Numbered from the stretch's first letter, positions 40,141-57,633 are shown. The stretch: DNA of 64,000 nt from Victivallales bacterium (GCA_963676655.2 CAXXKX010000005.1:171955-235954), one strand, 5' to 3'. The notes: generated from the letters alone by a model not told the origin. Numbers and translations are program-made.

Positions 40141-40491
40141 TTATAAATTCTCTTTGTTAATTATCGGCCCGATAGTATCGGCCCACGGATCAGAATTATC
40201 ATAGTCCTTACTTTGACCGCCGTTCCACGGCCTCATCCCTGGGTAGTTTTTCGGTTGAATGCCGGTCCCGCCATACCAGTTTTTATTTTTGTGGGAGCCG
40301 GGTTCCGAACGGCGAATAATTCGACTTTTCGGCCGCAATTCCGCGAGACGCTGATCCAGCGCGGCCAGAACCTCTGTCCGAGGGATGCGACGGTCCTTTT
40401 CCAACGCATAATACCGTGCGCATTCGATCCCCGACATGTTTTTGATTTTTGCAATCAATTCAGCTTTTTTCTCTGGCATTTTATACTCCAA
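40141..40491 (-). CDS. Hypothetical early protein carrying an in-frame GC-hairpin repeat
   Basis: 116 aa. Residues IRRSEPGSH are encoded by repeat copy 40291-40316. Confidence 0.45.
   Translation of the reverse strand: MEYKMPEKKAELIAKIKNMSGIECARYYALEKDRRIPRTEVLAALDQRLAELRPKSRIIRRSEPGSHKNKNWYGGTGIQPKNYPGMRPWNGGQSKDYDNSDPWADTIGPIINKENL
40291..40316 (-). repeat. GC hairpin element type a
   Basis: Plus strand GTGGGAGCCGGGTTCCGAACGGCGAA, inside ORF 40141..40491. Confidence 0.75.
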
Positions 40492-40897
40492 TCTCCCCGC
40501 CGACCACGTTTTTGCCGTTTATTTCAAAAGAACCATTAGTTTTATATACCCATCCAATAGACTCAAGAGGAACCTCAATATGCTCCCCTCCGTATAAAAC
40601 GACATATTTGCCATGCCGAATATTTTTCACAAAAACTGTTACGAGTTCTTTAGGCATGAGCGGGTGGTTGAGATAACAGATAATTTTATCTCCGACTTCG
40701 ATCTCCGGATTTTTTTCCTTTCCTTTTTCGCGTTCCAGCTTCCGGCGCCTGACCTCAATTGCTTTCAGTACGGTTTTTCGTGAAAAACCGTTGTTTTCGA
40801 TTTCTTCAGCCTGGTCCAGTTCTTCTTTTGACATCTCGCGGATCACGCTGATCGCGTCAACCGTACTGCTGTGCATCCATTTCATTCTTTCAACCAT
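40481..40897 (-). CDS. Hypothetical early protein
   Basis: 138 aa, AT-richer codon usage, 11-nt overlap with the downstream ORF. Confidence 0.5.
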   Translation of the reverse strand: MVERMKWMHSSTVDAISVIREMSKEELDQAEEIENNGFSRKTVLKAIEVRRRKLEREKGKEKNPEIEVGDKIICYLNHPLMPKELVTVFVKNIRHGKYVVLYGGEHIEVPLESIGWVYKTNGSFEINGKNVVGGEIGV

Positions 40898-40900
40898 TAT

Positions 40901-41131
40901 TTACCTCCTGTTATGAATTAACTTTTCTATCAAAATGATAGCTTTTTCACCATATTTTTTTTGAATATGTTCTTTGAGAGAAACATTGTCAGCAACCTTC
41001 TGCCATGAATCAAACTTAACAATGTCAAAACCTGTATAGAAGTCCCAAAAGTTAAGAAGTCTAAGCCCGAAAAGACGTTGAAATTCAATGCAGTTTGATA
41101 AGTAACATTCTTTTACTTCATTAAGAATCAT
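40901..41131 (-). CDS. Hypothetical small protein
   Basis: 76 aa. ATGA overlap with the recombinase stop. Confidence 0.45.
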   Translation of the reverse strand: MILNEVKECYLSNCIEFQRLFGLRLLNFWDFYTGFDIVKFDSWQKVADNVSLKEHIQKKYGEKAIILIEKLIHNRR

Positions 41132-41724
41132 TGCATTTCCTTTACGAAGCTCGATACCGTTAGGCGATGCACTTTTAGGACTTTAGCGATTTTGGAAAAC
41201 GATATTCCTGCATCAAGCATTTCTTTTATTTTTTTCTCTTTGCCGGTCAATTTTCTCTTTGACGATTTACTACCTTTAGGACGGCCCAAAATAACCCCTT
41301 CGGCTTTTTTTCTTGCAAGGGCTTCTTTGGTTCTTTGCGATATTAGATTTCTTTCGATTTCAGCGGCGAGTCCAAAAGCAAATGCCAGAACTTTTGAACT
41401 GATATCATCGCCCAGGCGAAAATTATCTTTGATTGTCCAAATTTGAATTTCTTTCCGCATGCAGCGATTTAATAATGACATTATCATCAAAAGGTTTCTG
41501 CCAAGACGCGAAAGTTCTGTACATATCAGAATGTCATCTTTTTTCATTCGATTGATAAACTTTCCAAGTTCGCGTTTATCTACTTCTTTTGTGCCGGAAA
41601 TAGTTTCTTCTATCCAACGGTCGACAATCAGGCCTTTTCGTTCGCAGAATTCATTAATTTCAAATCTTTGATTCTCAACCGTCTGCTTATCGGTACTGAC
41701 TCTGATATATCCGTAAATCATCAT
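41128..41724 (-). CDS. Serine recombinase (resolvase/invertase family)
   Basis: 198 aa. Catalytic-Ser motif YGYIRVSTDKQ and SRLGRN. C-terminal HTH ISFSKIAKVLKVHRLTVSSF. Confidence 0.9.
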   Translation of the reverse strand: MMIYGYIRVSTDKQTVENQRFEINEFCERKGLIVDRWIEETISGTKEVDKRELGKFINRMKKDDILICTELSRLGRNLLMIMSLLNRCMRKEIQIWTIKDNFRLGDDISSKVLAFAFGLAAEIERNLISQRTKEALARKKAEGVILGRPKGSKSSKRKLTGKEKKIKEMLDAGISFSKIAKVLKVHRLTVSSFVKEMQ

Positions 41725-41882
41725 TTACCTCCAGGGAGTCTGATCCCGATTATCTGTTGCCTTGGAGCTCTTTTTTTGCGCTTCTGAATGGCCTCTTTTT
41801 CAGTCTCGGCCATAACTTCAGTTTCAAAAAGATCAAAGCCATTCTTGCGTTTAATCATTGACTGAACATAGAATTTTTTCAT
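41721..41882 (-). CDS. Small ORF (53 aa) translationally coupled to the recombinase
   Basis: MKKFYVQSMIKRKNGFDLFETEVMAETEKEAIQKRKKRAPRQQIIGIRLPGGK. Stop overlaps the recombinase ATG (ATGA). AGGA lies upstream of its ATG. Below the track size cutoff. Confidence 0.4.
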   Translation of the reverse strand: MKKFYVQSMIKRKNGFDLFETEVMAETEKEAIQKRKKRAPRQQIIGIRLPGGK

Positions 41883-41910
41883 TTCTAATTCCTAATTTCT
41901 AATTACTAAT
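41883..41910. repeat. Heptamer tandem array (TNCTAAT x4)
   Basis: TTCTAAT TCCTAAT TTCTAAT TACTAAT fills the gap between the GemA stop and the next ATG. Confidence 0.8.
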
Positions 41911-42602
41911 TAAAAGGGCGCCGCTTCCAGCTTCCGTTCGCATTGAATAATGCGCTGTTTCAGCGCTTCAATGGCTTTCAGGGCGTCGCTGCTGGTCATA
42001 TCGTGAAGCGGCTTAAACTCGGCATATCGACACGCGTGAGCGCAAATGCCGAGCAGATATTCATCGTTGCGATGTTCCGGGGAAAGCAGCTGTTCCAGTT
42101 CGGCCCATTTTTGCTTTATTTCCCAGATTTCGCGACTGTTCGCCTTGCCGCGCTTCGGACGTTTATTCCGCCAGTAGTGCGGATCAATCCCCGCTGGAAG
42201 CGAAGTACCGCCGTCCGTCGTACGGACTTCAATTGCTGCCATTGCGATATCGAAATGTATCTGGGTTAGTTTGCCTGATTCGACGTCTGAGTACCCGGTA
42301 GCTTTATACAGCAGCTGCGCGGCGTCCAGGTCCGACATCTTACAGTATCCGACATACTTTTTCCAGGTCCGAATCTGCTTCGGCTGCCAGCCCTTTTTTC
42401 GACGTCCGTTTTCGTTAGTGTCCGTCCGTGCTTGTCCGTGTTCCCGGAGTGCGTTGAGCACATCCACCACCTGGTTTGATTCCAGGTCTTTACAGGACGT
42501 CACCCAGGCAACCTGAAACAGAATTTGCCGGTACTGCTCATCGGCAATACCGGCATCTTTCTGCGCCATCTTGATGGCGATTATTTGTTTCCGGGAAATC
42601 AT
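41910..42602 (-). CDS. GemA-like regulatory protein (DUF1018, Mu gp16 family)
   Basis: 230 aa. The N-terminal RKQIIAIKMAQKDAGIADEQYRQILFQVAWVTSCKDLESNQVVDVLNAL pattern recurs in the C-terminal half. Confidence 0.6.
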   Translation of the reverse strand: MISRKQIIAIKMAQKDAGIADEQYRQILFQVAWVTSCKDLESNQVVDVLNALREHGQARTDTNENGRRKKGWQPKQIRTWKKYVGYCKMSDLDAAQLLYKATGYSDVESGKLTQIHFDIAMAAIEVRTTDGGTSLPAGIDPHYWRNKRPKRGKANSREIWEIKQKWAELEQLLSPEHRNDEYLLGICAHACRYAEFKPLHDMTSSDALKAIEALKQRIIQCERKLEAAPF

Positions 42603-43096
42603 CCTGAAGCCTCGTTTAAACGCTCATGCGCCTGCTCGTATTCCGAGCCAAGAATCTCAATGAAGTGCTCTGGTCGCTTGAACTCCAGATCATTATCAAT
42701 GTCAAAATACGCGGTATCACCTACAGTAAAACAAGCAGGACAAGTAATCATGGATGCCAGCCCTCCTGGCGGCTTCGGCCCGAATTGCATTTGAAATCCA
42801 ATCGTATCAGCAATCAAGTCAATTCTGAGAATTTTCGGCAAAGTTTTAATTTTTTCCGTTGCGGTTTTATTCTTAACTTTGGGCATGGTGATTCCCTGCC
42901 GGTCTGGCTTCCGCCAGTTTTCCGGGATATCTCCGACAAAGGAAAATCCCGCCAGACGGCCTCCGGTATAAAACCATGCTTTTTCGGCTCCGAATTCTTT
43001 TGCTAACTCAAAAGCGCGCCTTCTGTAATTAGTTTTGCTTTCAAGTACCTCGTTCATTACCCGGATTACTTCCGAATCTGTCGTTTTGTAATACAT
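42599..43096 (-). CDS. Hypothetical early protein
   Basis: Start MYYKTTDSEV at ATG 43096 after AGGAGGAAAAAAG. The track ORF start 43165 overlaps the upstream gene. Confidence 0.5.
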   Translation of the reverse strand: MYYKTTDSEVIRVMNEVLESKTNYRRRAFELAKEFGAEKAWFYTGGRLAGFSFVGDIPENWRKPDRQGITMPKVKNKTATEKIKTLPKILRIDLIADTIGFQMQFGPKPPGGLASMITCPACFTVGDTAYFDIDNDLEFKRPEHFIEILGSEYEQAHERLNEASG

Positions 43097-43119
43097 CTTT
43101 TTTCCTCCTGATTTTGGTT

Positions 43120-44139
43120 TTATTCTTCGAGTGCCTTTGTTTGGAGACCGACGCACCTGCTGCAAAGATTGGGCTCAACCCAACTGCAACCGTCCGGACA
43201 GGCGTTAAGGTCGGTACAACCGCAAACCCGGCAAACCCACTCGGAACTCAACGCGCCCAACTGTTCAAGCAGGGTTGTTTTACGCTGGTCATACTCTTCG
43301 TATTGCTCATCGAATTCGGCGTCGAGAATCTGTAATTTCTCGAAGATAGTGCGCTGCTCCTCGTTGAAGTTTTCTTCTGTAACCACGCAGAGACCTTTGA
43401 ACCGTAAACTTTCCTCATCTATTTCGCAATCGCCTTCATGCTCGTTTACTTCCAGCAGCTCGCAAACGCTTTGCAGCGCCATGAACGCGACCTCGCTCAT
43501 TTTCAGCTCCATCGGCCGGAACGCGACCGTATGAACCCTTTTCTCGTCCACGCTGCTGTCGATGATCCCGTTTTCCAGGATAAGGCGTAACACGTCCTCC
43601 TGGCTCGGCTCCAGTAACTCCAAGGGGCCGGAATCGCTTTCCTGCTCCTCCTCATCGATCAGCGGCGTTGGCTTCGGTTTGATAAAGAACGCCGTGCGGT
43701 ATGCCGGATCAGCGTGGATTCCGTTCAGGTCGGTACCGAGGTATTCGGCTTCGGCCAGTCCGGGCCAGATGCCGGTCCAGCGTGCGAATTTCTTATCATG
43801 GTCCTCGCAGTCACAGGAAAGACGCTGACCGCCGCAAACGCTGCACTGTTCGATATCGCAGCCGTCCTCATGCTCGAATCCCGGTTCGATTCCGCAATCC
43901 GGACAAAGCCCGATTTCTTTCTTTTTTTCCTTTTTCCCGTCCAGGTATTCAAGTTCCTTCCAACGCTTTTCGATTTGAGCCTTGCGTGAAGCATATTCTT
44001 CTTGAACTTTCTCTGTATCATCCAGATTTGAATAATCTTTTAGCTCATTGTCGTACCATGCCTCAAGCTCTTTCAACTCCACCAGCAGCTCCCGCCGCTC
44101 GTTCATATCATCGTTTATCTTGCTCATAATTGAACTCAT
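43120..44139 (-). CDS. Cys-rich (two zinc-module) acidic early protein, hypothetical
   Basis: 339 aa. [30 protein letters not shown] and C-terminal [27 protein letters not shown]. Confidence 0.55.
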
Positions 44140-44167
44140 TTCTTTTTACTTTCTTTGGTAGTTTATT

Positions 44168-44225
44168 GTGGGAGCCGGGCTCCGACCGGCGAAAAGGCCG
44201 GACGAGACGTCCGCGCTCCCAGGGG
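44168..44225 (-). repeat. GC hairpin elements, types a + b composite (intergenic B / 339-aa gene)
   Basis: GTGGGAGCCGGGCTCCGACCGGCGAA aa GGCCGGACGAGACGTCCGCGCTCCCAGGGG. Confidence 0.8.
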
Positions 44226-44255
44226 TGAAGTTGGCGCTCGGCGCGCCATGTGGAA

Positions 44256-45290
44256 TTATTTTTCGGGCCAGATACCGCCTGAGTTTCGCCAGTCAACCGC
44301 GACTCGCAATGCTTTGGCGTCAAGCTCTTGGCCTTTTTGGCGAGCCCAGTCTGACGCACGTTCTAAATCTTCAAACAACGTACGCAATTTACCCTCGTCG
44401 GAATTTGCAATATTATATGCATAATCGACTAATTTCTGAGGAGGGCTCGGGCGGAATGATGAGACAGCGGCGATTATTTCGTCCATCAATACTTTATCAG
44501 GGATCTTAACCGTAAATTTATTTCTACCGCAAAACTGCTCAAAGAATTTTTTAAGCTGACCGTGAGTAATCATTTCAAGATAAACATCGGTAAAAATAAA
44601 GACAACTGAACATTTATCGATATCATAAAAATCGCGCATTAATTCGATTGGAATCCCTCCTCGCCCATCTTTCGGAATTAGGAATCCCGCCTCATCTGCA
44701 ATTATTACGTTCCGGTGATCCAGCGCGTCATGCAACTTCATTTCAAGCTCTGGAGCCGGGCGGTGATGTATCCCTATTCCACACGCCTTGCATAGGTACT
44801 GGGCCAATGTCTTTCGAGTACAACTTGATGGGACTCTCAAGAACTTTGCCCGGCCATGGTTGTTAGCTTTAGCCCAAGCTTCTGCTGTTGTTGTCTTACT
44901 GCGCCCGGTGGGGCCGACAATAAAAACCAAAGAATGAAAATCCCTGGCATAATTCAACGCTTCGACAATTTTTTCTGTTACAACCGTCCGGACAATTCCC
45001 GCCCCGCGAAGCTCATCTTTCCGTATCCGTATTATGGCCTGAATTAGCGGTGAAATTTCAGGCTCGGTTGCCCGGCCGGTCATTGCCAGCCTTACTTCTT
45101 CGTAACTCAAGCCAGTCGCTTTTTCAATTTTTCTTTGAGAGGCACCCAAACTGTTATGGATATACCCCCAGAACCACTCTAGATGCTCTTGAGCGGTTTC
45201 GGTGTAGTTCTGAATGCCTACTTTGAGCTGATTCAACCCGAAAGACAGATTATCCTGCCTAACGCCGTTTATTCCTTCTGTTTTACTCAT
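44256..45290 (-). CDS. AAA+ ATPase, MuB/TniB-like transposition protein
   Basis: 344 aa. Walker A GPTGRSKTT and Walker B VIIADEAGF. 8-nt overlap with the transposase stop. Confidence 0.75.
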   Translation of the reverse strand: MSKTEGINGVRQDNLSFGLNQLKVGIQNYTETAQEHLEWFWGYIHNSLGASQRKIEKATGLSYEEVRLAMTGRATEPEISPLIQAIIRIRKDELRGAGIVRTVVTEKIVEALNYARDFHSLVFIVGPTGRSKTTTAEAWAKANNHGRAKFLRVPSSCTRKTLAQYLCKACGIGIHHRPAPELEMKLHDALDHRNVIIADEAGFLIPKDGRGGIPIELMRDFYDIDKCSVVFIFTDVYLEMITHGQLKKFFEQFCGRNKFTVKIPDKVLMDEIIAAVSSFRPSPPQKLVDYAYNIANSDEGKLRTLFEDLERASDWARQKGQELDAKALRVAVDWRNSGGIWPEK

Positions 45291-47295
45291 AATCGTTGAA
45301 CCTCCTGTTGATCATGAATTTGTTGAAGTCTTCTATATCTTCGGTCGAAGAGTCCGGAACGTCCGAAATCTTCCCCGTAACGATTTCATTCATCTCCGCC
45401 AGTTCGGCGTCGCGTTTATCTTCGCGAAATTCGATTCGCCGGTCCAGGGCGGAAGCCGCATCTTCTCCGGGAACGCCGGTCGCCAGTCCGGCATTGCATT
45501 TCCCTGGCAGCGCTTTGTAATGATTGAATTCATGGCTCGCGCCCTTGACGCTCCTGGAACTTCCGACCTTGACGATGTCGAAATCTTCCGGCAGTTGCAG
45601 CAGCTCTTGAACGCTTAAAAGATGTAAACCACCAGTTAACTCGTCAAGTATCGTATACCCGGCTTTAAGCTGGCCGCGATGTTCTTTCATCTGCTCGCTG
45701 ATCCGCTGCCGGTCCTCGTCGCTTTTCGCCAGGGCTTTGCATTTTTCCCGCGTTTCGCATTTTCCGATCGGCTGGCCATCCGGGGTGAAAACAAACACAT
45801 GCTCATCGGTCAGCATGGAAGTTTTAATCATTACTTTTTCGCCAAAATGATTAAGCAGGCAATTGCCGTAATAGTAGGTTTTATCGACGCTGACGCAGAA
45901 GCCGCGCCCGACCGTCCTGAGACTCGCTAACGGCATCAGGAACGCCGCGAACAGCTCTTCAACGGTCAATGGCGCCGCGTGGTAGCGTTCGCCGTGGTCG
46001 AACGCCGTCCGGGGCGTCTGGCCGCCGACAATCTCGCCGTTATTCTGCTGATCGTGATACAGTTCGATCCATTTGCTGAAAGCCTGGCAGAACTGCTCCA
46101 GCGTCGGCAGATGTTCAGGATGCTTGCGGAAGTGCTCGGCCGCGTCCGGCCGCGCTCCCGGCGTGTTCCCCAGGTAAGCGGCAAAATACTTGTCAAATTT
46201 ATCCGCGTGTTCTTTGAAGCCGCGTTCGACCGTTTTGGCGCGGCCATTGTAAGGCAGCGAAGTAATTACTTTAATTCCCAGGCTTTTCAGGATCGAATGT
46301 TCATGCCCGTCGAATTCAACCGGCTCGGAAAACCCCTGTGCCTTGAAGTCTTTGCCGTTGTCGTTATACAGATAACCGGGACGCCCGTGCCGGGCGATTC
46401 CCCAGGCCAGGCCGTTCCGGATCGTCGCGTTGTTCGGACTTTCGGCCTGAATCTGCCAGCTGGTATAATACCAGCTTTTCGCGTCCATAAAAGCGCAGAG
46501 CCAGGGACGCGTCGCTTTCCACTCGCCGTTCTCATCCAGCACCTTGATGTAGCAGTCGAATACCCGGTGGTCGCTGATCCAGATTTCATTTGCCCGGACC
46601 CCGCTCCAGTCGCGGTGGATATATCCGACGATATGATTTTTGACGTATTCCTCGCCGTGCCTTGCCAGCGCGACCGCGATCGGCGACAGCTGCTTTACCC
46701 GGTATCGGGTCTGACCGATTGACGGCACTTCCGCGAACGGGTTCTGATCCCTCATCCGGCATGATGCCAGGCGGTAACACTCCTCGACTGACAGCTTGTT
46801 CTGATTCAGATAAAACGCGTTGAAAAATGTCCAGAATTCGGCGTCGCCTCTCGCTGCCTGGACGCCGGTATTGTAATTGTCGACCAGTACATTCCGGTTG
46901 TCCCAATTGTATTCCCTGCCGATTTTACCGAGTTTCCGGAGCCACGCCCGGCAATTATTGTAAGTCAACTGTGACCGGCCGTTCTGGCCGCCGTTTTTCA
47001 GTTTTGGGAACGACCGGATATTCAGCCTGGCAACTTCTTCGCAGCACTTTTCCATTTTCCAGCCGGTCGTCGCTTTTTTCTCAACACAAAGTTTGCAGAA
47101 AAGCCAGCGCTCATCACGCTTCAAACGCTGATCGACGGTCAATTCGTTTGACTCTTTTATCGACCGCGCGATCGCTCCGCTGCTCACTTTCATAATGTGG
47201 GAGCCGGGCTCCGAACGGCGAATCGTTACCGGCGCCAATACCTCCGCCCCGCCGGTTCCGGTTAGTAAATTCTCTTTTAGTGCTGCCAGTCCCAT
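45283..47295 (-). CDS. DDE transposase, Mu A-like (integrase-core fold)
   Basis: 670 aa. Candidate D-D-E in WISDHRVFD, LYNDNGKDF, AKTVERGF. Alternative start ATG 47193 (MKVSSG) lies just after repeat copy 47197-47222, which is otherwise translated as IRRSEPGSH. Confidence 0.8.
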   Translation of the reverse strand: MGLAALKENLLTGTGGAEVLAPVTIRRSEPGSHIMKVSSGAIARSIKESNELTVDQRLKRDERWLFCKLCVEKKATTGWKMEKCCEEVARLNIRSFPKLKNGGQNGRSQLTYNNCRAWLRKLGKIGREYNWDNRNVLVDNYNTGVQAARGDAEFWTFFNAFYLNQNKLSVEECYRLASCRMRDQNPFAEVPSIGQTRYRVKQLSPIAVALARHGEEYVKNHIVGYIHRDWSGVRANEIWISDHRVFDCYIKVLDENGEWKATRPWLCAFMDAKSWYYTSWQIQAESPNNATIRNGLAWGIARHGRPGYLYNDNGKDFKAQGFSEPVEFDGHEHSILKSLGIKVITSLPYNGRAKTVERGFKEHADKFDKYFAAYLGNTPGARPDAAEHFRKHPEHLPTLEQFCQAFSKWIELYHDQQNNGEIVGGQTPRTAFDHGERYHAAPLTVEELFAAFLMPLASLRTVGRGFCVSVDKTYYYGNCLLNHFGEKVMIKTSMLTDEHVFVFTPDGQPIGKCETREKCKALAKSDEDRQRISEQMKEHRGQLKAGYTILDELTGGLHLLSVQELLQLPEDFDIVKVGSSRSVKGASHEFNHYKALPGKCNAGLATGVPGEDAASALDRRIEFREDKRDAELAEMNEIVTGKISDVPDSSTEDIEDFNKFMINRRFNDYE
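47197..47222 (-). repeat. GC hairpin element type a
   Basis: GTGGGAGCCGGGCTCCGAACGGCGAA, within the first 35 codons (or 5' UTR) of the transposase gene. Confidence 0.8.
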
Positions 47296-47304
47296 CTCAA
47301 TAAT

Positions 47305-47332
47305 TCCTAATTTCTAATTCCTAATTTCTAAT
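47305..47332. repeat. Heptamer tandem array (TCCTAAT/TTCTAAT x4)
   Basis: Fills the gap between 47340..48113 and the transposase ATG 47295. Same orientation as 41883-41910. Confidence 0.8.
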
Positions 47333-47339
47333 TCCGGCT

Positions 47340-49609: not shown

Positions 49610-49624
49610 GAAGGCGCCTTCAAG

Positions 49625-50696: not shown

Positions 50697-50728
50697 AACT
50701 CATAACTCATAACTCATAACTCATAACC
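50694..50728. repeat. Heptamer tandem array (CATAACT x5)
   Basis: The first unit contains the ATG (minus strand) of 50364..50696. The array fills the whole intergenic gap. Confidence 0.85.
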
Positions 50729-50730
50729 GG

Positions 50731-51111
50731 CTAGAACCCTAGCCGCCCGTCCCCGTTTCCCAGGTCCAGTTCCCTGACCCTGGGAGCGCGACGCTCCAGC
50801 GCCGCTTCTTTATTGCCGCAGTGGCCTGCGGCGCTCCCAGGGGCTCCCGTCGTACGGAGCCGGAGACGCTTTTCCAGTTCCAGCAAGCCGGACCAGGTAA
50901 TCATTACCCGGGCGTAATCCCCGGCCATCCCGTTGCGTTCCCAATGCGAAACCCGCAGCGTCATCCATTCATGAATAAATGCCGCCGGACGCGGTTTCCC
51001 GCCCTCCAGCAACCCGACTTCCCGGCACTGCTTAAATATCCGCTTCGGGCCGGAATCTATCCCGTGCCGTTGCAGCATCTTTGAAGCAAATTGCAGAGTC
51101 ATCGTATTCAT
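50731..51111 (-). CDS. Hypothetical early protein (weak KilA-C/antirepressor-like N-part; repeat-derived tail)
   Basis: 126 aa. The C-terminal ~40 aa are translated from GC-hairpin repeats 50779-50861. Confidence 0.45.
   Translation of the reverse strand: MNTMTLQFASKMLQRHGIDSGPKRIFKQCREVGLLEGGKPRPAAFIHEWMTLRVSHWERNGMAGDYARVMITWSGLLELEKRLRLRTTGAPGSAAGHCGNKEAALERRAPRVRELDLGNGDGRLGF
50779..50844 (+). repeat. GC hairpin elements types e + d
   Basis: CCTGGGAGCGCGACGCTCCAGCGCCGC ... TTGCCGCAGTGGCCTGCGGCGCTCCCAGGGG. Confidence 0.75.
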
Positions 51112-51200
51112 AATTCAAATCCTCTTTCAGCCACGAATTGCACTAATCTCACTAATTAAAAAACTATTCGTGTCATTCGTGCGATTCGTGGCTCCTTTCA
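51109..51200 (-). repeat. 92-bp direct repeat copy 1 (stop codon + leader hairpin + SD + ATG)
   Basis: Identical, except 1 nt, to 51450-51541. Confidence 0.9.
51129..51193 (-). repeat. Leader element, full hairpin copy B
   Basis: agCCACGAATtgCACTAATctCACTAAT-taaaaaact-ATTCGTGtcATTCGTGcgATTCGTGGCT. 17 nt to ATG 51111. Confidence 0.85.
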
Positions 51201-51452
51201 AAATGTTATACTTTCGTTGAAATGGCATTCGATGCAGAAGTAGTTCGCTACTTCCGCGCCCATGCCGCACTCATCGTAATCGTCGCTGGCGAAGACCATC
51301 GGCTCGCCGCATTCCGGACAGACCGGAGTACAGCACAGAGTGTCGTTTTCGCATTCCTCGCAATGGAGCGTCTTGTGCAGGTCGCTCTTATCGCAGTGCT
51401 TGCACTCCTCGTACCGCGATAAATACTCTTCCCAACTGATTAATCTGTCCAT
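51198..51452 (-). CDS. Cys-rich zinc-ribbon small protein
   Basis: 84 aa. CKHC...CEEC...CPEC...CIEC pairs. Confidence 0.6.
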   Translation of the reverse strand: MDRLISWEEYLSRYEECKHCDKSDLHKTLHCEECENDTLCCTPVCPECGEPMVFASDDYDECGMGAEVANYFCIECHFNESITF

Positions 51453-51541
51453 AATTCTAATCCTCTTTCAGCCACGAATTGCACTAATCTCACTAATTAA
51501 AAAACTATTCGTGTCATTCGTGCGATTCGTGGCTCCTTTCA
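51450..51541 (-). repeat. 92-bp direct repeat copy 2
   Basis: Identical, except 1 nt, to 51109-51200. Confidence 0.9.
51470..51534 (-). repeat. Leader element, full hairpin copy C (identical to B)
   Basis: Same 65 bp as copy B. 17 nt to ATG 51452. Confidence 0.85.
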
Positions 51542-51583
51542 CTTTTCCTCCTGGCCGGTACGACCGGCCGCGATGTTATTTTT

Positions 51584-51611
51584 CTTACTGGCAACTGGTA
51601 ACTGGCAACTG
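51584..51611. repeat. Heptamer tandem array (NNAACTG x4)
   Basis: CTTACTG GCAACTG GTAACTG GCAACTG, directly after the Ner-like stop. Confidence 0.75.
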
Positions 51612-51614
51612 ATT

Positions 51615-51809
51615 TCAAATATCCAGCAATTCCACCGGCTCACAGCCGAGGATTGCCGCATAACGCTTCGCTACCCGGACCGTTTTAATCCCGCGACTCA
51701 TTTGCAGCGAGACGTTGGACGTTCCGACTTTCATTCTGGCCGCGATGTCGACCGGCCGAATCCCGGCCCGCTCGATCGCCTGGCATAATTTTGTTTTTCT
51801 TTCGCTCAT
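51615..51809 (-). CDS. Ner/Cro-like small HTH regulator, first gene of the leftward early operon
   Basis: 64 aa. IRPVDIAARMKVGTSNVSLQMSRG is the HTH. AGGAGG lies upstream. Divergent from 51939..52361. Confidence 0.6.
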   Translation of the reverse strand: MSERKTKLCQAIERAGIRPVDIAARMKVGTSNVSLQMSRGIKTVRVAKRYAAILGCEPVELLDI

Positions 51810-51938
51810 ATTACCTCCTGGATTATAGCGTTAGATATATAAAATATAACGATCATTATATTTTAAACCAAAAAAATTTACTTCCCTTTTCCCGGAGTTA
51901 TATTATGAATATCAACCAACCTGTTAAGGAGGCCAGAT
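51810..51938. promoter_or_regulatory. Divergent control region with a perfect operator-like palindrome
   Basis: AAAATATAA-cgatca-TTATATTTT at 51841-51864, between the divergent starts at 51809(-) and 51939(+). TATAAT lies just upstream of the minus-strand SD. Confidence 0.5.
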
Positions 51939-52361
51939 ATGTCTGAATGGAAACACGCCGCTGAACAGATCAAGGCGGCAATAAAGGAAAACCAAAAAGA
52001 CTCGGAGAAGCGTTTTAATTGGCTTAAAGAATATGCTCGCCGAGGAAATCCGTGTTCACATATTGCAGCCGGGCAAGCACTTGCTTCTGCTGTGATAGCC
52101 GCCTCGGTTCTTGGGGGCAAAGATGAAATCATTTTAAAACTCATTTACAACCCTCGCGAGGGACAAATTGGCCGTGAAGACTTCCGTTTTGACTTTGCAC
52201 GCCACGCTCTTTTGCTATTGCTGGACGGCTACGAAAAGGATAATTTGAGCGCGCTGAGCAGCCAGCTTGATGCCGCAAGCGGGGCCGTGCTGCTCTCAAT
52301 GCTCCTTGAGGCCTTGGCTTACGAATCCGGCCAATTAGCGGAAGATATTCAATCTCCTTAA
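51939..52361 (+). CDS. Hypothetical protein divergent from the early operon (positional repressor/immunity candidate)
   Basis: 140 aa. Strong SD AAGGAGG 6 nt upstream. Helical-looking, with no HTH recognised. Confidence 0.5.
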   Translation: MSEWKHAAEQIKAAIKENQKDSEKRFNWLKEYARRGNPCSHIAAGQALASAVIAASVLGGKDEIILKLIYNPREGQIGREDFRFDFARHALLLLLDGYEKDNLSALSSQLDAASGAVLLSMLLEALAYESGQLAEDIQSP

Positions 52362-52455
52362 TGGCGCGTTCAATAAATTTGGAAGACTTACCATAAGGCA
52401 AGGTGCTGTTTGCCTCAATTAAGAGACCAAGTATATTGTTGACCTGCTTTCTCAT
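52141..52455 (-). CDS. Possible small ORF convergent with and overlapping 51939..52361 (doubtful)
   Basis: Strong SD AGGAGAAAGAGG before ATG 52455. The first ~40 aa look plausible. The rest is R/P-rich and antisense to the plus-strand ORF. Confidence 0.2.
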   Translation of the reverse strand: MRKQVNNILGLLIEANSTLPYGKSSKFIERAIKEIEYLPLIGRIRKPRPQGALRAARPRLRHQAGCSARSNYPFRSRPAIAKERGVQSQNGSLHGQFVPREGCK

Positions 52456-52610
52456 AACCTCTTTCTCCTTTTTTTGATTAAAATAAAACTACGGCCTGGT
52501 ATTAAAATATAAGGTTCCCTATAGAAAGTCAAGCCTTTTTTTATAAAAAGTTGATTTTTTTTAAACTTGGTGTATCTTAATATTCACCTACACAAAATAA
52601 TGAGCGGGAT

Positions 52611-53003
52611 ATGGATCTTGTCAAAAAAACCGAAGAGGCTTTTCATAAAGCAGTACAACGCGCCGGCGGCAAGCTGGTAAGACTTCAGGAAAAAACCGGA
52701 GTAAGTTATCCCATTATTAATCGGCTAAACAGTGGTAGAAATAAGTTTAAAGACGTTTCCTTACAAACGGTTGAAAAGCTTTTTCCTGAACTTCAGGCAT
52801 ATTTTTTCCGGGATGAATATCCGAAGCCGGAACTTGCTGGCTTTGACCATTTAACAAGATCACAACAAAAACTTTTAAAAATGATTATCGAGCTGGATGA
52901 GGACGGGCAGCTTGATGCACTTGAGGCGCTTAGCCGGATTAGTGAGCGCCGCCGTCTGGTTGGAGAAGTGGAAGCTTCAAAACACCAGGACCTGGCAGGC
53001 TGA
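52611..53003 (+). CDS. XRE-like HTH regulator
   Basis: 130 aa. HTH LQEKTGVSYPIINRLNSGRNKF. Confidence 0.6.
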   Translation: MDLVKKTEEAFHKAVQRAGGKLVRLQEKTGVSYPIINRLNSGRNKFKDVSLQTVEKLFPELQAYFFRDEYPKPELAGFDHLTRSQQKLLKMIIELDEDGQLDALEALSRISERRRLVGEVEASKHQDLAG

Positions 53004-53049
53004 AGCGCTTGGCCTTCGGCTTGTCGGCCCCAACGCGCCCCGGCGTTTT

Positions 53050-53077
53050 CCTGGGAACGCGGACGTCTCGTCCGGCC
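53050..53077 (+). repeat. GC hairpin element type b
   Basis: CCTGGGAACGCGGACGTCTCGTCCGGCC. Confidence 0.7.
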
Positions 53078-53144
53078 TTAAGGCGTCCCGCCTTTCCCCG
53101 CTATCCCGCTACGAGAAACTCCGTCTCGACTTTTTCGACCGCCC

Positions 53145-53195
53145 TTGACAAATCCCCGGTGACGCTATAAAATAATACTGTCACAAACTTGTCAA
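53145..53195 (+). promoter_or_regulatory. Sigma70-like promoter embedded in nested inverted repeats
   Basis: TTGACA (53145-53150), 17-nt spacer, TAAAAT (53168-53173). Flanked by TTGACAA/TTGTCAA (53145/53189) and GTGAC/GTCAC (53159/53180). Confidence 0.5.
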
Positions 53196-53230
53196 TATAA
53201 AAACCAGGAGGACTGCCGGCCAGGGCCGGA

Positions 53231-53272
53231 ATTATGAGTTATGAATTATGAGGTATGAATTATGAGTTATGA
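53231..53272. repeat. Heptamer tandem array (RTTATGA x6), inverted relative to 50694-50728
   Basis: ATTATGA GTTATGA ATTATGA GGTATGA ATTATGA GTTATGA, just upstream of the SD of 53293..54153. Confidence 0.85.
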
Positions 53273-53292
53273 ATTAAATCCAGGAGGAACCC

Positions 53293-54153
53293 ATGAAAAA
53301 AACCATCGTCTTATTCTCTCTCACATTCGTGTTATTCGTGCAATTAGTGGCTGGCTCCCCGGATTCTTCCAGTTACTCTTACTTGGGCAAGCCGATTACC
53401 GAAAAGCGCTTCAAGTTGTTTTACAAATATTTAAAAGACTTTTATTATGCTGATGTATCCGGAAAAGTTTATTGCCGAGAATATTATACGATATTAAAGA
53501 ATATGCCAACCAAGGCGAAAGCGGGAGATTTTGGCGAGGTAAGCGGCAAAGTATTCCAGGTTGTCGACGATAACCGGATTTTGCTGAATGTGTCATATTC
53601 GTACATAAAAAAGGTTAAGCGCTCTTTAGGCCCGAATGTTATCAATACGGCGCTTTCTTCTGATGAAATAGACATGCGGCCAGCGTCTAGAGAAGAAGAG
53701 GGCGTAGATAATTCCGCCCTGAGACGGAACAATGAAAATTATAGTTATGAGGAAAAGCTCATTAAGGCGCATTATTTGTCAAGCGTAATTCTGCCGGACG
53801 CGAAAAAGCTGATCAACGGACGCGATTTTTCCTGTGTGGCCGTTATGAAAGGAGTCTTTCATTATCAAACGACGCTCAACGCCAGCAATTCGATTCCCGA
53901 GTTTGAATTATTGCATCCGGTTACCGAAGCGGAATTTAAATCGTTTCTGGACAAAGGAAATCAGCTGTATTATTTTAAGAAAAAATACACTCCGGCCAAA
54001 TACAAAACCTGCCCTAAATGCAAAGGCGTCGGCGCGGTTCCGGTTAAGCCGCATAGTGTGAGCATGAAAAAATGTCCGGCCTGCAACGGCAAACGAAAGA
54101 TACAAACTCAATTTGCTAAGTTGGAATATTTGCGATTGCCTTTGAATAAATAA
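53293..54153 (+). CDS. Secreted protein with C-terminal DnaJ-type CxxCxGxG zinc finger; moron candidate
   Basis: 286 aa. Signal peptide MKKTIVLFSLTFVLFVQLVAGSP, with its hydrophobic core encoded by repeat copy 53325-53352. C-terminus CPKCKGVGAV...CPACNGKRKI. Confidence 0.65.
   Translation: MKKTIVLFSLTFVLFVQLVAGSPDSSSYSYLGKPITEKRFKLFYKYLKDFYYADVSGKVYCREYYTILKNMPTKAKAGDFGEVSGKVFQVVDDNRILLNVSYSYIKKVKRSLGPNVINTALSSDEIDMRPASREEEGVDNSALRRNNENYSYEEKLIKAHYLSSVILPDAKKLINGRDFSCVAVMKGVFHYQTTLNASNSIPEFELLHPVTEAEFKSFLDKGNQLYYFKKKYTPAKYKTCPKCKGVGAVPVKPHSVSMKKCPACNGKRKIQTQFAKLEYLRLPLNK
53325..53352 (+). repeat. Leader-element arm inside a CDS (copy J)
   Basis: ATTCGTGttATTCGTGcaATTAGTGGCT, translated as FVLFVQLVA (signal-peptide core of 53293..54153). 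Confidence 0.7.
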
Positions 54154-54180
54154 TTTACAAATTTACAAATTCTTAATTTA
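54152..54180. repeat. Octamer tandem array (AATTTACA-like x3.5)
   Basis: AATTTACA AATTTACA AATTCTTA ATTTA. The inverted partner is at 54669-54695. Confidence 0.7.
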
Positions 54181-54187
54181 AAAAAAC

Positions 54188-54213
54188 GCCCCGGATTTTC
54201 GGGGCTTTTTTTT
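54188..54213 (+). terminator. Rho-independent terminator
   Basis: GCCCCG-gatttt-CGGGGC followed by TTTTTTTT. Confidence 0.8.
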
Positions 54214-54219
54214 GCCTTT

Positions 54220-54248
54220 ATGCGCGGCTGGAGCCACGCGCTCCCAAC
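54220..54248 (-). repeat. GC hairpin element type c
   Basis: ATGCGCGGCTGGAGCCACGCGCTCCCAAC. Confidence 0.75.
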
Positions 54249-54289
54249 TCATCCCTCATAACTCATCCCTCATAACTTATCTCATCCCC
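54246..54289. repeat. 14-bp tandem repeat (AACTCATCCCTCAT x~3)
   Basis: AACTCATCCCTCAT AACTCATCCCTCAT AACTTATCTCATCCCC. Confidence 0.75.
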
Positions 54290-54309
54290 TCCGTGGTTAA
54301 ATGCGCCTT

Positions 54310-54339
54310 TATGCCGCAGTGGCCTGCGGCGCTCCCAAC
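54310..54339 (-). repeat. GC hairpin element type d
   Basis: TATGCCGCAGTGGCCTGCGGCGCTCCCAAC (stem GCCGCAG/CTGCGGC). Confidence 0.75.
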
Positions 54340-54402
54340 TCCCCCTTTCATCCTTTGCAGCTATGCTGCATCTTTAATCCTTAAGCCTCCCCCGCTCCCA
54401 AT

Positions 54403-54430
54403 ATTCGTGTCATTCGTGCGATTAGTGGCT
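54403..54430 (+). repeat. Leader element, orphan 3'-arm copy G
   Basis: ATTCGTGtcATTCGTGcgATTAGTGGCT followed by AAAAAAACGGA. No ORF follows. Confidence 0.7.
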
Positions 54431-54586
54431 AAAAAAACGGAACGCATAAAATACTTGCCTTTAGCTATTTAACTTCTTTCAACACAAAAAAACAGAACGT
54501 GCGGCCCCTTATAAACGCGGGTTTATTTCAAAACTTGTTTTGAAATAACAAAGCTCCTGCGCCCGTCTTTTGCGGTCCGGGGGAAT

Positions 54587-54613
54587 GCGGACGAGACGTC
54601 CGCGCTCCCAGGG
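54587..54613 (-). repeat. GC hairpin element type b
   Basis: GCGGACGAGACGTCCGCGCTCCCAGGG (stem GCGGACG/CGTCCGC). Confidence 0.75.
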
Positions 54614-54668
54614 TGTCGGCAAGCGACGGGGCGGAGCGCGCCTTGGCCGCCGGTGGCGGCAATGGGTC

Positions 54669-54695
54669 AATTTGTAAATTTGAGAATTTGTAAAT
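54669..54695. repeat. Inverted partner of the AATTTACA array
   Basis: AATTTGTAAATTTGAGAATTTGTAAAT. Confidence 0.7.
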
Positions 54696-54722
54696 GACAA
54701 AAACAGCGAGTCCTGCACGTGT

Positions 54723-55283
54723 GTGACATTGAGCAGTCGGAAACAGAAAACGAAAGGGTTTGAGATGCTGACCGCCGGGGGAAAGCCCCGGCCCCGCGTC
54801 TCTGAAAAGGGTAAAAAATTGGATATTGTGAAAGAGGTAATTATCCCGCTCGGGAGTGCGGTTCTGGGCTCCGGAATTGTCGGTGCGGTTCTGGGCTGGG
54901 GCTTGAATAGCCTGGCCAAACGACACGACGATCTGTCGAAAGAGGTCAAAAGCCTTCGCGATGAGAAGATTGTCAAAATGGAAAAGTCGCTCGAAAAAGA
55001 GGATAAAAATCTGAAAGACGATCTGCATAAGACCGAAGTTGACCTCAATAAAAAGATTGACAAGGTCGAAAGCAATCTCGACCGGCATAAAGAGGCCGAC
55101 GTCTCGCAGCAGGTACTGACCGAACTTAAAACCCTCAATAATACCACTTCCCGCACCGACGCCCGCGTTGCTAAAATCGCCGAGGATACAGCCAGCCAGG
55201 CCGCCCAGATTCAGGCGAATAAAGAATATATCGGTAATCTTGATGATTCATTCCAGAAGCACAAAGCAAAGGAGACACACTAA
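54723..55283 (+). CDS. Membrane-anchored coiled-coil protein, hypothetical (start may be 54765)
   Basis: 186 aa. TM IIPLGSAVLGSGIVGAVLGWGL, then a long coiled coil. Lies immediately upstream of the packaging genes. Confidence 0.55.
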   Translation: MTLSSRKQKTKGFEMLTAGGKPRPRVSEKGKKLDIVKEVIIPLGSAVLGSGIVGAVLGWGLNSLAKRHDDLSKEVKSLRDEKIVKMEKSLEKEDKNLKDDLHKTEVDLNKKIDKVESNLDRHKEADVSQQVLTELKTLNNTTSRTDARVAKIAEDTASQAAQIQANKEYIGNLDDSFQKHKAKETH

Positions 55284-55570
55284 TGAGCGCGAAAACTTAC
55301 TTGTTACGACAGGGCATTCTTGAGGCTATGAAATTTTACGGGTCGGATATGGCCTCGAACATCAGCGATATCGCCTTGCACCCCCAGGTTCAACTGCTCC
55401 GGGTTGCTGAAGACGCGATCAGCGAACAACTCGAGGAACTTGCCGGGATGGGGTACGTCGAACGCTGCCCCGGTTTCGGGGGCGGCTACTTCAAAATTAC
55501 CACGCTTGGACTTCAGCAGGTCAGCCCGGAGTTTCCAACCGATCCGTTTATATCCGGGAGACCGGCATAA
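55283..55570 (+). CDS. Small winged-helix-like protein, hypothetical
   Basis: 95 aa. TAATG overlaps at both ends. ..ISEQLEELAGMGYVERCPGFGGGYFKITTLG resembles a wHTH wing. Confidence 0.5.
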   Translation: MSAKTYLLRQGILEAMKFYGSDMASNISDIALHPQVQLLRVAEDAISEQLEELAGMGYVERCPGFGGGYFKITTLGLQQVSPEFPTDPFISGRPA

Positions 55571-56175
55571 TGGCCAGGGCCAGAAATAACATTACCCGGC
55601 TGCCGTTTGAAATTCGCGTTGGAGTTATCGCGGGAATGCTGGCTGACGGCGCTACTTATGATGAAGTTCGCGATAACCCGGCGGTTGCCGCTGCCTGCCG
55701 TGATCGCGGTGGTGTACAACTGCATAACTGCTCGTTTCTGGCCTATCGCAAAAGTAAAGAATATCAGGACGCGCTTGCCGCCAAAAGGCAAAGCAATCAG
55801 CGCTTTATAGCCAAGCGGATCAAGGCGATGTCAATCGGCGAGGCTCACGGCGTCGACAGCGTGATCAAGGTTACTGAAGCAACCCTGGTTGAGCAACTCC
55901 AGGAACTGATCGACAACGCGGAAGACGACGAACTGACCCTCGGCGCGATGTCGAAGGCCGCCGCGATCCTCAACAACCTGAAACAGTCGAAAGCCGAAAC
56001 CCGTCTCCTGAAACTCCAGCGCGAAAATGAAAATTTAAAAACCGAACTCGCCGCCCAGAAAGAAAAATACGAGGGCATAATCGAAAACCTGACCGGGAAG
56101 CAGAATCAAAAGGTCGATCCGGCGGCGGTGCAGAATCAACTTGACGACATATTGGGGCTCAACAAGAAAAAATGA
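55570..56175 (+). CDS. Putative terminase small subunit (Mu gp27/DUF3486-like)
   Basis: 201 aa. N-terminal ITRLPFEIRVGVIAGMLADGATYDEV plus a C-terminal coiled coil. Lies directly upstream of the large terminase, with ATGA coupling. Confidence 0.45.
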   Translation: MARARNNITRLPFEIRVGVIAGMLADGATYDEVRDNPAVAAACRDRGGVQLHNCSFLAYRKSKEYQDALAAKRQSNQRFIAKRIKAMSIGEAHGVDSVIKVTEATLVEQLQELIDNAEDDELTLGAMSKAAAILNNLKQSKAETRLLKLQRENENLKTELAAQKEKYEGIIENLTGKQNQKVDPAAVQNQLDDILGLNKKK

Positions 56176-57563
56176 CACAAGAGACGCCATATTTTTTGCC
56201 TTACCAGGAAAACTGGATCCTCGACGAATCCGAACTGAAGCTTTATCCGAAATCACGCCGGGTCGGGATCACTTACGGCACCAGTTACCGGTCGCACAAA
56301 AAATGTATGGAACGGCCTAATTTTACGCAATGGGTTACCAGCCGCGATATCCTGACGGCAAAAGAGTTCGTAACCGATTACATCGCGAAATGGGCCAAGG
56401 CGGCAAACGCGGTGGCCAAAGGGCTGGCCGGGGATAACGCCCAGGTGGTGGACGAACTGCACGGAATCACGGCGTTTGTGGTTGAATATGAAGCGACCGG
56501 CAGCCGGGTTGTTTCATTGTCGAGCACACCCGAAGCTTTCGCGGGAAAAGGCGGAGACGTGCTGATTGACGAGGCGGACCTGCACAAAGACAGCGGCAAA
56601 GTAATCGACATGGCGCTGCCGTGTACGACCTGGGGCGGCCAGTTGGAAGTGGTCTCCGCGCTGAAAGTCGACGGCAACGCGAACAGCCCGTTTTGCAGGC
56701 TGATGAAAGACGTCGAAACCGGCGGCAACCCGCAGGGCTGGAGTTATCACAAAACGAATATTTTACAGGCGGTCGAGCAGGGATTTGTCGAGAAGCTGAA
56801 CGAAGTCACCGGCCGGAATTACATCCGGTCCGGATGGTTGGAGAAAATGCGGGCAAAGTGCCGCAGCCAGGAAGCCTGGGACAGCCAGTACATGATTATC
56901 CCGCAGGACGCGGGCGGCTCGCTGTTGAGCTACGAATTGATAGGCCAGGCCGAAAACGACAAGTGCCCGATCGATCCGCGCGGCGCGACCTACATCGGAA
57001 TGGATATCGGCCGAAAACACGACTTGACGGTAATCTGGCAGCTTTGCCGTCTCGGCGATGTCTTCTGGACGACAAAATTAAAAGTCCTGGAAAAAACGCC
57101 GTTCCGCGATCAGCTGGACGTGCTGTGCCGGATACTGGAACGCGAACGCGTGACGCGCTGCTGCATTGACGCGACCGGGATCGGCGCGATGCTGGCCGAA
57201 GAGGCGCAGCGGCGCTTCGGAGAATACAAAGTTGAAGCAGTCGGCTTTACCGCCGCCGCCAAAGACGAAATGGCAAACCTGATGTTGCAGCGTTTCCAGG
57301 ACGCGCAGGTCAGAATCCCGCAGAACCGGGAAATCCGGGAAGATTTGCACAAAGTGGCCAAGGTCGTTACCGCCGCCGGGAATATCCGCTATCAGGCTGA
57401 AAGTGACGATGCCGGACACGCCGACCGTTTCTGGGCATTGGCGCTGGCGCTGCTGGCCGCCGGGAACGATTCCGGAGTTGCAGACGCGCTGGAGATCAAA
57501 GATGATTCCCGTTACGGGCGGGGTGACGAATACGACCAGGTCTACGGCAGTGACCGCTATTGA
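56172..57563 (+). CDS. Terminase large subunit (Mu gp28-like)
   Basis: 463 aa. N-terminal YFLPYQENWILDES...KSRRVGITY and a C-terminal nuclease-like DATGIG...D motif. Confidence 0.8.
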   Translation: MTQETPYFLPYQENWILDESELKLYPKSRRVGITYGTSYRSHKKCMERPNFTQWVTSRDILTAKEFVTDYIAKWAKAANAVAKGLAGDNAQVVDELHGITAFVVEYEATGSRVVSLSSTPEAFAGKGGDVLIDEADLHKDSGKVIDMALPCTTWGGQLEVVSALKVDGNANSPFCRLMKDVETGGNPQGWSYHKTNILQAVEQGFVEKLNEVTGRNYIRSGWLEKMRAKCRSQEAWDSQYMIIPQDAGGSLLSYELIGQAENDKCPIDPRGATYIGMDIGRKHDLTVIWQLCRLGDVFWTTKLKVLEKTPFRDQLDVLCRILERERVTRCCIDATGIGAMLAEEAQRRFGEYKVEAVGFTAAAKDEMANLMLQRFQDAQVRIPQNREIREDLHKVAKVVTAAGNIRYQAESDDAGHADRFWALALALLAAGNDSGVADALEIKDDSRYGRGDEYDQVYGSDRY

Positions 57564-57567
57564 ACAA

Positions 57568-57633
57568 AAACAATCGCCGTTCGGAGTCCGGCTCCCACGG
57601 AAACAATCGCCGTTCGGAGGTTGGCTCCCACGG
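57568..57633 (+). repeat. 33-bp tandem duplication of a type-a GC hairpin element (terminase/portal gap)
   Basis: AAACAATCGCCGTTCGGAGTCCGGCTCCCACGG then AAACAATCGCCGTTCGGAGGTTGGCTCCCACGG. Confidence 0.85.

Follow-up and report, generated by a model that had tools for sequence, protein, structure and literature searches.

A window of 64,000 nucleotides from Victivallales bacterium (GCA_963676655.2 CAXXKX010000005.1:171955-235954) carries, within a Mu-like prophage, a family of units 25 to 30 nt long in which a short GC-rich hairpin stands beside an invariant tag, 5'-TGGGAGC-3' (GCTCCCA on the other strand). We consider it probable that these units are repetitive extragenic palindromic (REP) elements from the class tagged GTAG/GTGG, mobilized in trans by a host REP-associated tyrosine transposase (RAYT) and repeatedly entering temperate phages. 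The kind of element is a known one; the phylum and the unusual density in a phage are new.

Units were called by reading each GCTCCCA site in context, together with a fuzzy search using five consensus sequences. Across the whole window GCTCCCA occurs 19 times, compared with 6.6 ± 2.5 in dinucleotide-preserving shuffles (maximum 13), and 16 of the 19 occurrences fall within 40292-57630. The fuzzy search returned 16 clear units in the window (seven of type a, four of type b, two each of types c and d, and one of type e), besides which there are one or two degenerate units, for a total of 11 to 12 loci (Table 1). A preliminary description of this DNA had claimed at least 17 units in 11 loci, with three composites and one tandem pair; our recount agrees with it, and the composites and the pair are arranged as described. 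All clear units, as well as the degenerate unit at 45443-45498, lie within the prophage span 40291-57631. The one host copy reported earlier, at 13880-13902, is present and resembles type e, except that its tail reads GCTCCCG instead of GCTCCCA; it lies within a repeat cluster downstream of an IS200-like Y1 gene.

Read as its reverse complement, type a is TGTGG-GA-GCCGG-GCTCCGA-CCGGC-GAA. Types b to e have CTGG-GA or TTGG-GA at the tag, and the part common to all types is TGGGAGC. Published Pseudomonas REPs include TGTGGGAGCGGGCgTGCCCGCGAA and GTAGGAGCCAGCTTGCTGGCGAA (Nunvar 2010, Table 1), and the GTAG-1 layout consists of a tag, two unpaired nucleotides, a stem-loop and a 3-nt motif (Di Nocera 2013); the latter study also lists GTGG tags in Opitutus terrae, likewise a bacterium of the Planctomycetes-Verrucomicrobia-Chlamydiae (PVC) group. 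Type a fits the GTAG-1 layout exactly, and its head, TGTGG-GA, is identical to that of P. putida REPs. The hairpin that matches known REPs is GCCGG/CCGGC, and not the 17-bp palindrome of type a that had been put forward as its key feature.

When single strands were folded, types b and d gave 7-bp hairpins well beyond those of shuffled sequences (z of -2.95 and -2.65), and a stem of 5 bp is present in the G variant of type a. An internal GGAGC is what the tail pairs with in types a, c and e. Stem pairs were tabulated by hand, as a MAFFT alignment placed the loop gap of type d inside the stem. Between type b (GCGGACG/CGTCCGC) and type d (GCCGCAG/CTGCGGC), three stem positions are changed on both sides, and a further stem, f, found in contig L024 (GCGGCCA/TGGCCTC), shows two more double changes relative to type b with the TGGGAGC tag kept. 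A fixed tag joined to co-varying stems points to recognition by a protein, and the compensatory variation of stems b, d and f, along with the Pseudomonas layout of type a, upholds the earlier REP-like designation of a variable hairpin plus a fixed tag. Two variants in contig L021 contain G-T wobbles, with pairing only on the tail-bearing strand.

The units occur as singletons, as inverted dimers that fold as one hairpin, as a trimer and as head-to-tail tandems, the last at 57574-57631, in contigs L019 and L021, and at 19006-19114 of L014, a contig that holds a related prophage. The dimer at 44168-44223 is REPIN-like, with its tags outermost and one long hairpin (folding free energy of -18.9 kcal/mol, z of -2.8), and that at 50779-50839, in a stretch that has no L014 counterpart, folds with a z of -4.3. 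Both window dimers thus fold well, yet their arms are of differing type, and most loci are singletons or tandems.

To place the units in related phages, homologues of the prophage transposase A were used, which yielded three prophages: L014, L017 and L015, whose transposases are 89%, 77% and 54% identical to that of the window. L014 has four type b units and no type a, and the site at 54587 is the only one with conserved flanks; L015 has no units, despite the same gene order. At the position equivalent to 40291-40315, L014 carries a different GC-rich insert, and the tandem at 57574-57631 is absent from both L014 and L015. The linker of a helix-turn-helix (HTH) protein (the ORF200 site) holds a-b-a in the window versus a b-b tandem in L014, the middle b unit being shared. 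A type a variant lies in the C-terminal linker of transposase A in L017, where the window has a different 54-nt insert and L014 is empty. Two site pairs are clean comparisons of filled with empty, namely 45443-45498 and the insert near 53045, for which the empty site in L014 reads GCGCCCCGG^CC. Same-site conservation in related prophages, which the preliminary description had named as grounds for giving up the REP reading, was mostly not seen, and that reading therefore stands; with the same units present in chromosomal DNA (L013, L019 and L021), the prophage appears to have been colonized, as was first proposed, rather than to carry phage regulatory sites.

IS608 inserts 3' of a fixed short target. 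Three insertion points in these prophages are directly 3' of tail-like sequences, GCGCTGCCAGGGGAA^, GCGCCCCGG^ and GCACTCCGGGAA^. As a lead only, drawn from these three cases, insertion 3' of tail-like sequences would explain both the tandem arrays and the repeated use of hot spots.

Five of the 12 loci are in-frame parts of open reading frames (ORFs), found in two linkers of transposase A (N- and C-terminal), in the HTH protein's linker and at the 3' ends of two ORFs; seven are intergenic. Type a is translated RRSEPGSH in several ORFs, and type b is translated NADETSALPG in three proteins; L014 GemA contains a type b unit in frame (NADETSALPG), at a place where the window has a different GC-rich stretch. 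The insert at 45443-45498 codes for 18 amino acids, NAGLATGVPGEDAASALD. The unit at 47197-47221 follows the conserved N-terminus of transposase A, MGLAALKENLLTG, to which the N-terminus shared by distant homologues, MGALALLKSSLLEP, is related. In-frame intragenic REPs are most numerous in O. terrae and, as Rickettsia palindromic elements (RPEs), in Rickettsia conorii (Di Nocera 2013). A second GC-rich in-frame repeat (CACGGAC..., with peptides of the RT(D/N)T type) was observed at 42400-42440 of the window (GemA), at 10060-10110 and 16370-16400 of L014, and at 540-600 of L017, where it occupies hot spots at which the other phage has a REP unit; these repeats might represent REP stems in decay, or else a further small family of repeats.

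Copies were also found outside this phage. When one genome per species (185,579 species) was scanned for type a, only one metagenome-assembled genome, of Victivallales, matched, in two places: between a gene for a metallo-beta-lactamase fold and a short-chain dehydrogenase gene (L013), and in an unrelated prophage, one that encodes an HNH endonuclease and a small terminase (L012). The unit at 54222 and the ACTCAyC heptamers that follow it are similar to L012 1645-1703. In metagenomes, type a was matched by a single 3.7-kb contig (L016). A padded motif profile of the type b frame-1 peptide (NADETSALPG), searched against a protein database, recovered small ORFs across type b arrays; one match to this peptide motif (L020) was set aside as a fungal chance match. 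Tandem b units lie between ybaB and recR (L019), an array with a 30-nt period lies between an HTH gene and a GGDEF-EAL gene (L021-L023), and an inverted dimer with the new stem, together with another stem variant, is found near a contractile-injection-system cluster (L024). Three c-like tandem units occur in host DNA immediately outside the L014 prophage. Chromosomal copies are present in L013, L019, L021 and L024, and ordinary intergenic DNA of related uncultured bacteria carries identical units. Scans of IMG/VR for types a, b and c gave only chance matches in high-GC contigs, or nothing.

Within the window, the 26.9 kb of prophage hold 11 to 12 loci, or about 0.4 loci per kb, and the 37.1 kb of host DNA hold no true locus and one degenerate one. 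Under uniform placement, the probability that all 11 loci would land in the prophage (42% of the window) is about 7e-5. When the window was pooled with L014, L015 and L017, DNA that had not been fetched because of a unit match, about 15 loci in 69 kb of prophage were counted versus 2 in 43 kb of host (binomial P of about 0.016), a result driven mostly by the window. Singletons and tandems in phage DNA (window, L014, L017 and L012) are oriented about 12 sense to 1 antisense with respect to transcription, which fits either a role at the RNA level or a strand-specific mechanism.

A link to a RAYT is suggested indirectly by a metagenome contig (L018), in which a gene fragment matches NCBIfam REP_Tyr_transpos (NF047646) at positions 99-146 with 54 bits and in which the last codons and the 3' flank of that gene are two type b units. 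The fragment aligns to the catalytic-tyrosine region of two 320-amino-acid (aa) proteins encoded in the window (31% identity, E of 5e-6) and not to the 155-aa Y1 transposase; a protein database search with the fragment returned only itself. Both 320-aa proteins have HUH and YxxLNPVRAGL motifs and match REP_Tyr_transpos below threshold, and a PDB sequence search with one of them gave no match. Because neither 320-aa gene is flanked by units, the two proteins are candidates for the class of enzyme only, and the window offers no demonstrated cognate enzyme. Of the HUH/Y1 connection drawn in the preliminary description, what holds is the indirect tie through L018, where two b units directly follow the 3' end of the RAYT gene; in the window, the three Y1 genes, whose proteins that description had proposed for binding and cleavage assays, have no flanking units of this family.

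The two 320-aa genes are 15 kb apart, with about 71-73% DNA identity over parts, and their products have a C-terminal extension of about 130 aa. On both sides of the 155-aa gene stand inverted copies of another repeat family, TATATGCCGC-hairpin and CCCGGGGTTCAATCGC..., and inverted repeats surround it at 13100-13290 and 13757-13970, consisting of TATATGCCGC plus a variable hairpin with a 5-bp stem, and of CCCGGGGTTCAATCGCTTCGCTCAATCACCCCGGG. This arrangement is REPtron-like, with a repeat family distinct from the GCTCCCA units; types b to d share its 5' (T)ATGC start.

Table 1. Repeat units, prophage genes and candidate enzyme genes in the window; for composite loci, the start and strand of each unit are given in the first column.
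Feature	Coordinates	Strand	Context
Type a unit TCGCCGTTCGGAACCCGGCTCCCAC	40291..40315	-	Inside ORF 40141-40491, translated RRSEPGSH
Inverted dimer, type a (44168-) and type b (44198+)	44168..44223		Gap between gene B and next gene
Degenerate unit ATGCCGGACTGGCGACCGGCGTTCCCGG in clean 54-nt in-frame insert	45443..45498	-	C-terminal linker of transposase A
Type a unit	47197..47221	-	In frame in transposase A, codons about 25-33, RRSEPGSH
Type c unit	49583..49607	-	Gap after ORF 49625-50227; no unit there in L014
Trimer, type a (49983+), type b (50022-), type a (50050+)	49983..50074		In frame, linker of HTH protein ORF 49625-50227 (...VGAGLRPANADETSALPGESPKSGSRTPNGE...)
Inverted dimer, type e (50779-) and type d (50815+)	50779..50839		Makes 3' end / C-terminal tail of ORF 50731-51111
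Type b unit, tail GTTCCCA	53050..53075	-	Within window-specific insert of about 56 nt
Type c unit	54222..54246	+	Long gap 54154-54722, directly 3' of terminator-like hairpin
Type d unit, GCCGCAG-TGGC-CTGCGGC + GCTCCCA	54313..54337	+	Intergenic
Type b unit	54587..54612	+	Intergenic; flanks also conserved in L014 (3493-3518), sole such unit
Head-to-tail tandem, two type a units (57574+, 57607+)	57574..57631	+	Between terminase stop 57563 and likely portal start
Degenerate e-like relative GCGCTGGAGACCGGCGCTCCCGG	13880..13902	+	Host DNA, between two 43-nt direct repeats
Mu-like prophage	37107..64000		Right end beyond window
Dam	37356-38228		Prophage gene
GemA	41910-42602		Prophage gene
B (ATPase)	44256-45290		Prophage gene
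A (transposase)	45283-47295		Prophage gene
Gam	48154-48711		Prophage gene
Terminase	56172-57563		Prophage gene
Portal (Mu-type)	ending 59333		Prophage gene
Protease	59330-60406		Prophage gene
155-aa Y1 transposase, IS200 type	13289..13756	+	Score above IS200-type cut-off
RAYT-like 320-aa protein	5058..6020	-	HUH (HFHV) and YVELNPVRAGL
RAYT-like 320-aa paralogue	20233-21204

Overall, we favor a model in which the REP units, unable to move alone, would be mobilized by a host RAYT, an HUH/Y1 tyrosine transposase that would bind the folded hairpin on single-stranded DNA and cut and rejoin next to the tag. Copies would then accumulate as singletons, head-to-tail tandems and inverted dimers, and in the Victivallales lineage REPs would have entered temperate phage genomes many times. 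The copies that persist would be those between genes or in frame in tolerant protein linkers, where only non-disruptive insertions survive. RAYT catalysis, the particular RAYT involved, the single-stranded substrate and the reason for the density in phage DNA are what we infer.

Several observations weigh against this model. Types a, c and e, presented in the preliminary description as hairpin variants alongside b and d, fold alone as single strands no better than shuffled sequences; only types b and d are strong hairpins in this form. Types b to e have CTGG or TTGG where the tag consensus is GTRG. A high chromosomal copy number is a hallmark of REPs (usually >100), and the 37 kb of host DNA in the window contain no true copy; the sole public genome with type a has 2 exact copies. 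No Y1 gene in the window is flanked by GCTCCCA units, and units beside a RAYT gene are seen only in L018, a contig of another organism that breaks off within that gene and so shows just its 3' side. Finally, the different inserts at the same hot spots could come from recombination and not from transposition.

This last point belongs to a broader alternative, in which the units spread without a dedicated transposase, through hairpin-promoted slippage, template switching, and gene conversion or homologous recombination, including exchange among co-resident phages and the chromosome. Orthologous hot spots in the window, L014 and L017 do hold differing GC-rich inserts of similar length, the tandem arrays in L019, L021 and at 57574-57631 have 30-40 nt periods, the shared middle b unit at the ORF200 site has differing neighbors, and no cognate transposase was found in the window. 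We nevertheless regard this explanation as unlikely, since identical 26-nt units occur at unrelated sites without flanking homology, a RAYT gene adjoins units in one contig (L018), and the fixed tag with co-varying stems points to protein recognition; such processes are also compatible with transposition and can run alongside it.

The density in phage DNA might instead reflect a selected function, with the units acting as RNA hairpins that stabilize or punctuate the lengthy transcripts of the early and late regions, or as gyrase or integration host factor (IHF) sites, as proposed for E. coli REPs. The sense bias in phage DNA and the G-T wobble variants that pair on the tail-bearing strand only would suit this idea, and Di Nocera 2013 argues from like evidence that many REPs act as RNA. 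An insertion mechanism could also give an orientation bias, however, units in coding regions are unlikely to serve as RNA punctuation, and L015 does without units at the same gene order; a selected function is in our judgment improbable. Phage regulatory sites kept by phage need, whether operators, a transposition enhancer, transposase-binding sites or terminators, are highly improbable, and setting the window beside L014, L015 and L017 already goes most of the way to refuting them. In their favor, the near-palindromic core of type a, offered in the preliminary description as a possible operator or enhancer, would suit a dimeric protein, there are copies close to where A starts and between B and the gene after it, and the 54587 site and its flanks are conserved in L014. 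Against them, L014 lacks type a, L015 lacks any unit, several units are translated within reading frames, an unrelated prophage and chromosomal gaps of other bacteria contain identical units, the hairpins have no T-run behind them, and CGCACAG, the repeat that the transposase likely binds at the prophage end, is another motif.

Other assignments of the units were also considered. No known RNA family or tRNA-like reading applies, because Rfam gave no family at gathering score across the whole window and a tRNA scan of the window found nothing. Type a as a mimic of the tRNA T-arm was dropped, as its loop does not fit the T-loop consensus. GCTCCCA as a Chi-like or uptake sequence was rejected; the host part has 3 copies, about the number expected by chance, and the heptamer is always accompanied by a hairpin. 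The units are not intrinsic terminators, because the hairpins are followed by GCTCCCA(GG/AC/C) with no T-run; several are also inside ORFs.

The prophage itself was delimited at its left end, position 37107, where homology with a related prophage begins; repeated CGCACAG motifs precede this end, which reads ...TTTACA. Four or five such repeats lie at 37107-37330, terminating in ...TTTACA, and are probably where the transposase binds the phage end. The minus strand carries the early genes and the plus strand the late ones, and the portal gene likely starts at an ATG at about 57651, after GGAGG. A serine recombinase of the DNA-invertase type (Gin-like) is encoded in the early region at 41128-41724, with no matching gene evident in the L014 gene list. 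The nearest homologues of transposase A come from sources named Victivallaceae or Lentisphaeria; with 16 kb of the prophage as query, megablast matched no GenBank phage, and a search of IMG/VR with transposase A found no relative. At 37080-37106 of the window and 18803-18906 of L014, both prophage ends adjoin one host hairpin motif (AAAGCCCTGAAGGG / CCTTCAGGGCTTT) in opposite orientation; the motif is a member of the family of repeats found on either side of the IS200-like Y1 gene at 13289-13756.

Further repeats were noted in the prophage. Eleven arrays of three 9-nt-spaced heptamers (ATTCGTGnnATTCGTGnnATTyGTGGC), none expected by chance, all lie in the prophage, at 48689-48757, 49547-49573, 50387-50413, 51130-51192, 51471-51533, 53325-53351, 54403-54429 and 63231-63257. 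They often form divergent pairs or stand upstream of ORF starts, and the array at 53325-53351 falls in the signal-peptide codons of ORF 53293-54153. L015 has similar CACGAA arrays in its phage DNA and its host DNA alike, so in the host clade the arrays may serve as a promoter or operator motif. Other heptamer arrays lie directly upstream of start codons, in the window at 41872-41911, 47301-47340, 62537-62606 and 50697-50727, and elsewhere at L012 497-519, 1952-1988, 4686-4732 and 5553-5591 and at about 6780-6800 and 13030-13060 of L014. These comprise RAATTAG repeats on the coding strand, and TATGAGT four times at 50697-50727; the heptamers of the window and of L014 differ at a shared intergenic site. 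They are possibly elements of the 5' untranslated region or of ribosome loading. A perfect 44-nt tandem duplication with the hairpin CCGTTCGTCGTACGGAC spans 48766-48853; a related copy lies at 42206-42227, and 50845-50862 holds a similar hairpin.

To our knowledge, REP movement has rarely been caught in the act, and no REP family has been described before in this phylum. Here the set of units differs between phages whose transposases are 77-89% identical, and the transposase of the phage itself contains a unit in frame. Should the density result from real insertion into phage DNA as it replicates, these phages would offer a workable system for studying REP movement and its targets, as well as a possible route between hosts; if the host chromosome proves equally rich, this would be an ordinary new REP family with some intragenic copies. 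A more far-reaching and still doubtful suggestion is that Victivallales temperate phages, Mu-like and others, are preferred targets, amplifiers and horizontal carriers of REPs, in that heavy phage replication would expose single-stranded DNA to the RAYT and REP-laden phages would carry units between hosts. If true, this would break with the view of REP and REPIN populations as strictly chromosomal and vertically inherited, and phages would be a natural trap for new REP insertions, including in-frame ones that remodel phage proteins. The REPIN/RAYT literature treats REPs and REPINs as long-lived, chromosomal and vertically inherited, with RAYT genes absent from horizontally mobile elements, and dense colonization of a transposable phage is therefore unusual.

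Among known systems, the insertion sequences (IS) of the IS200/IS605 kind share with these units a presumed HUH/Y1 enzyme acting on single-stranded hairpins, as well as the three insertion points that follow a tail-like sequence on its 3' side; an IS end pair is much longer than these units, and the 155-aa gene of the window has another repeat family. The O. terrae GTAG-20 elements (GTGG tag) and RPEs are likewise in-frame palindromes that code for extra peptides in functional genes, often as dimers or groups, but they lie in chromosomal repair or replication genes, whereas the genes here are those of phages (A, L014 GemA and the HTH protein). RPE-1 is also longer, and the likeness to O. terrae REPs and RPEs is one of arrangement. 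Pseudomonas transposable phages are reported to have integration hot spots beside REP sequences or sequences like bacterial interspersed mosaic elements (BIMEs) (PMC5977238); in both cases a Mu-like phage interacts with host REP-type hairpins, as both prophage ends here abut the same host motif, but that work concerns phage insertion sites, while the present repeats sit inside the phage genome. The units also resemble the GTAG-1 REPs of Pseudomonas (Nunvar 2010; Di Nocera 2013) and REPINs (Bertels and Rainey 2011) in their 25-30 nt length, in the order of tag (TGTGG/GTAG), GA, GC-rich stem-loop and GAA as seen in type a, in sub-families with compensatory stems, in singletons, inverted dimers and tandems, and, in the one contig L018, in lying beside a RAYT gene. 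What differs is the host phylum, Lentisphaerota (Victivallales), an invariant part of 7 nt (TGGGAGC), and the very high density of units inside a transposable prophage.

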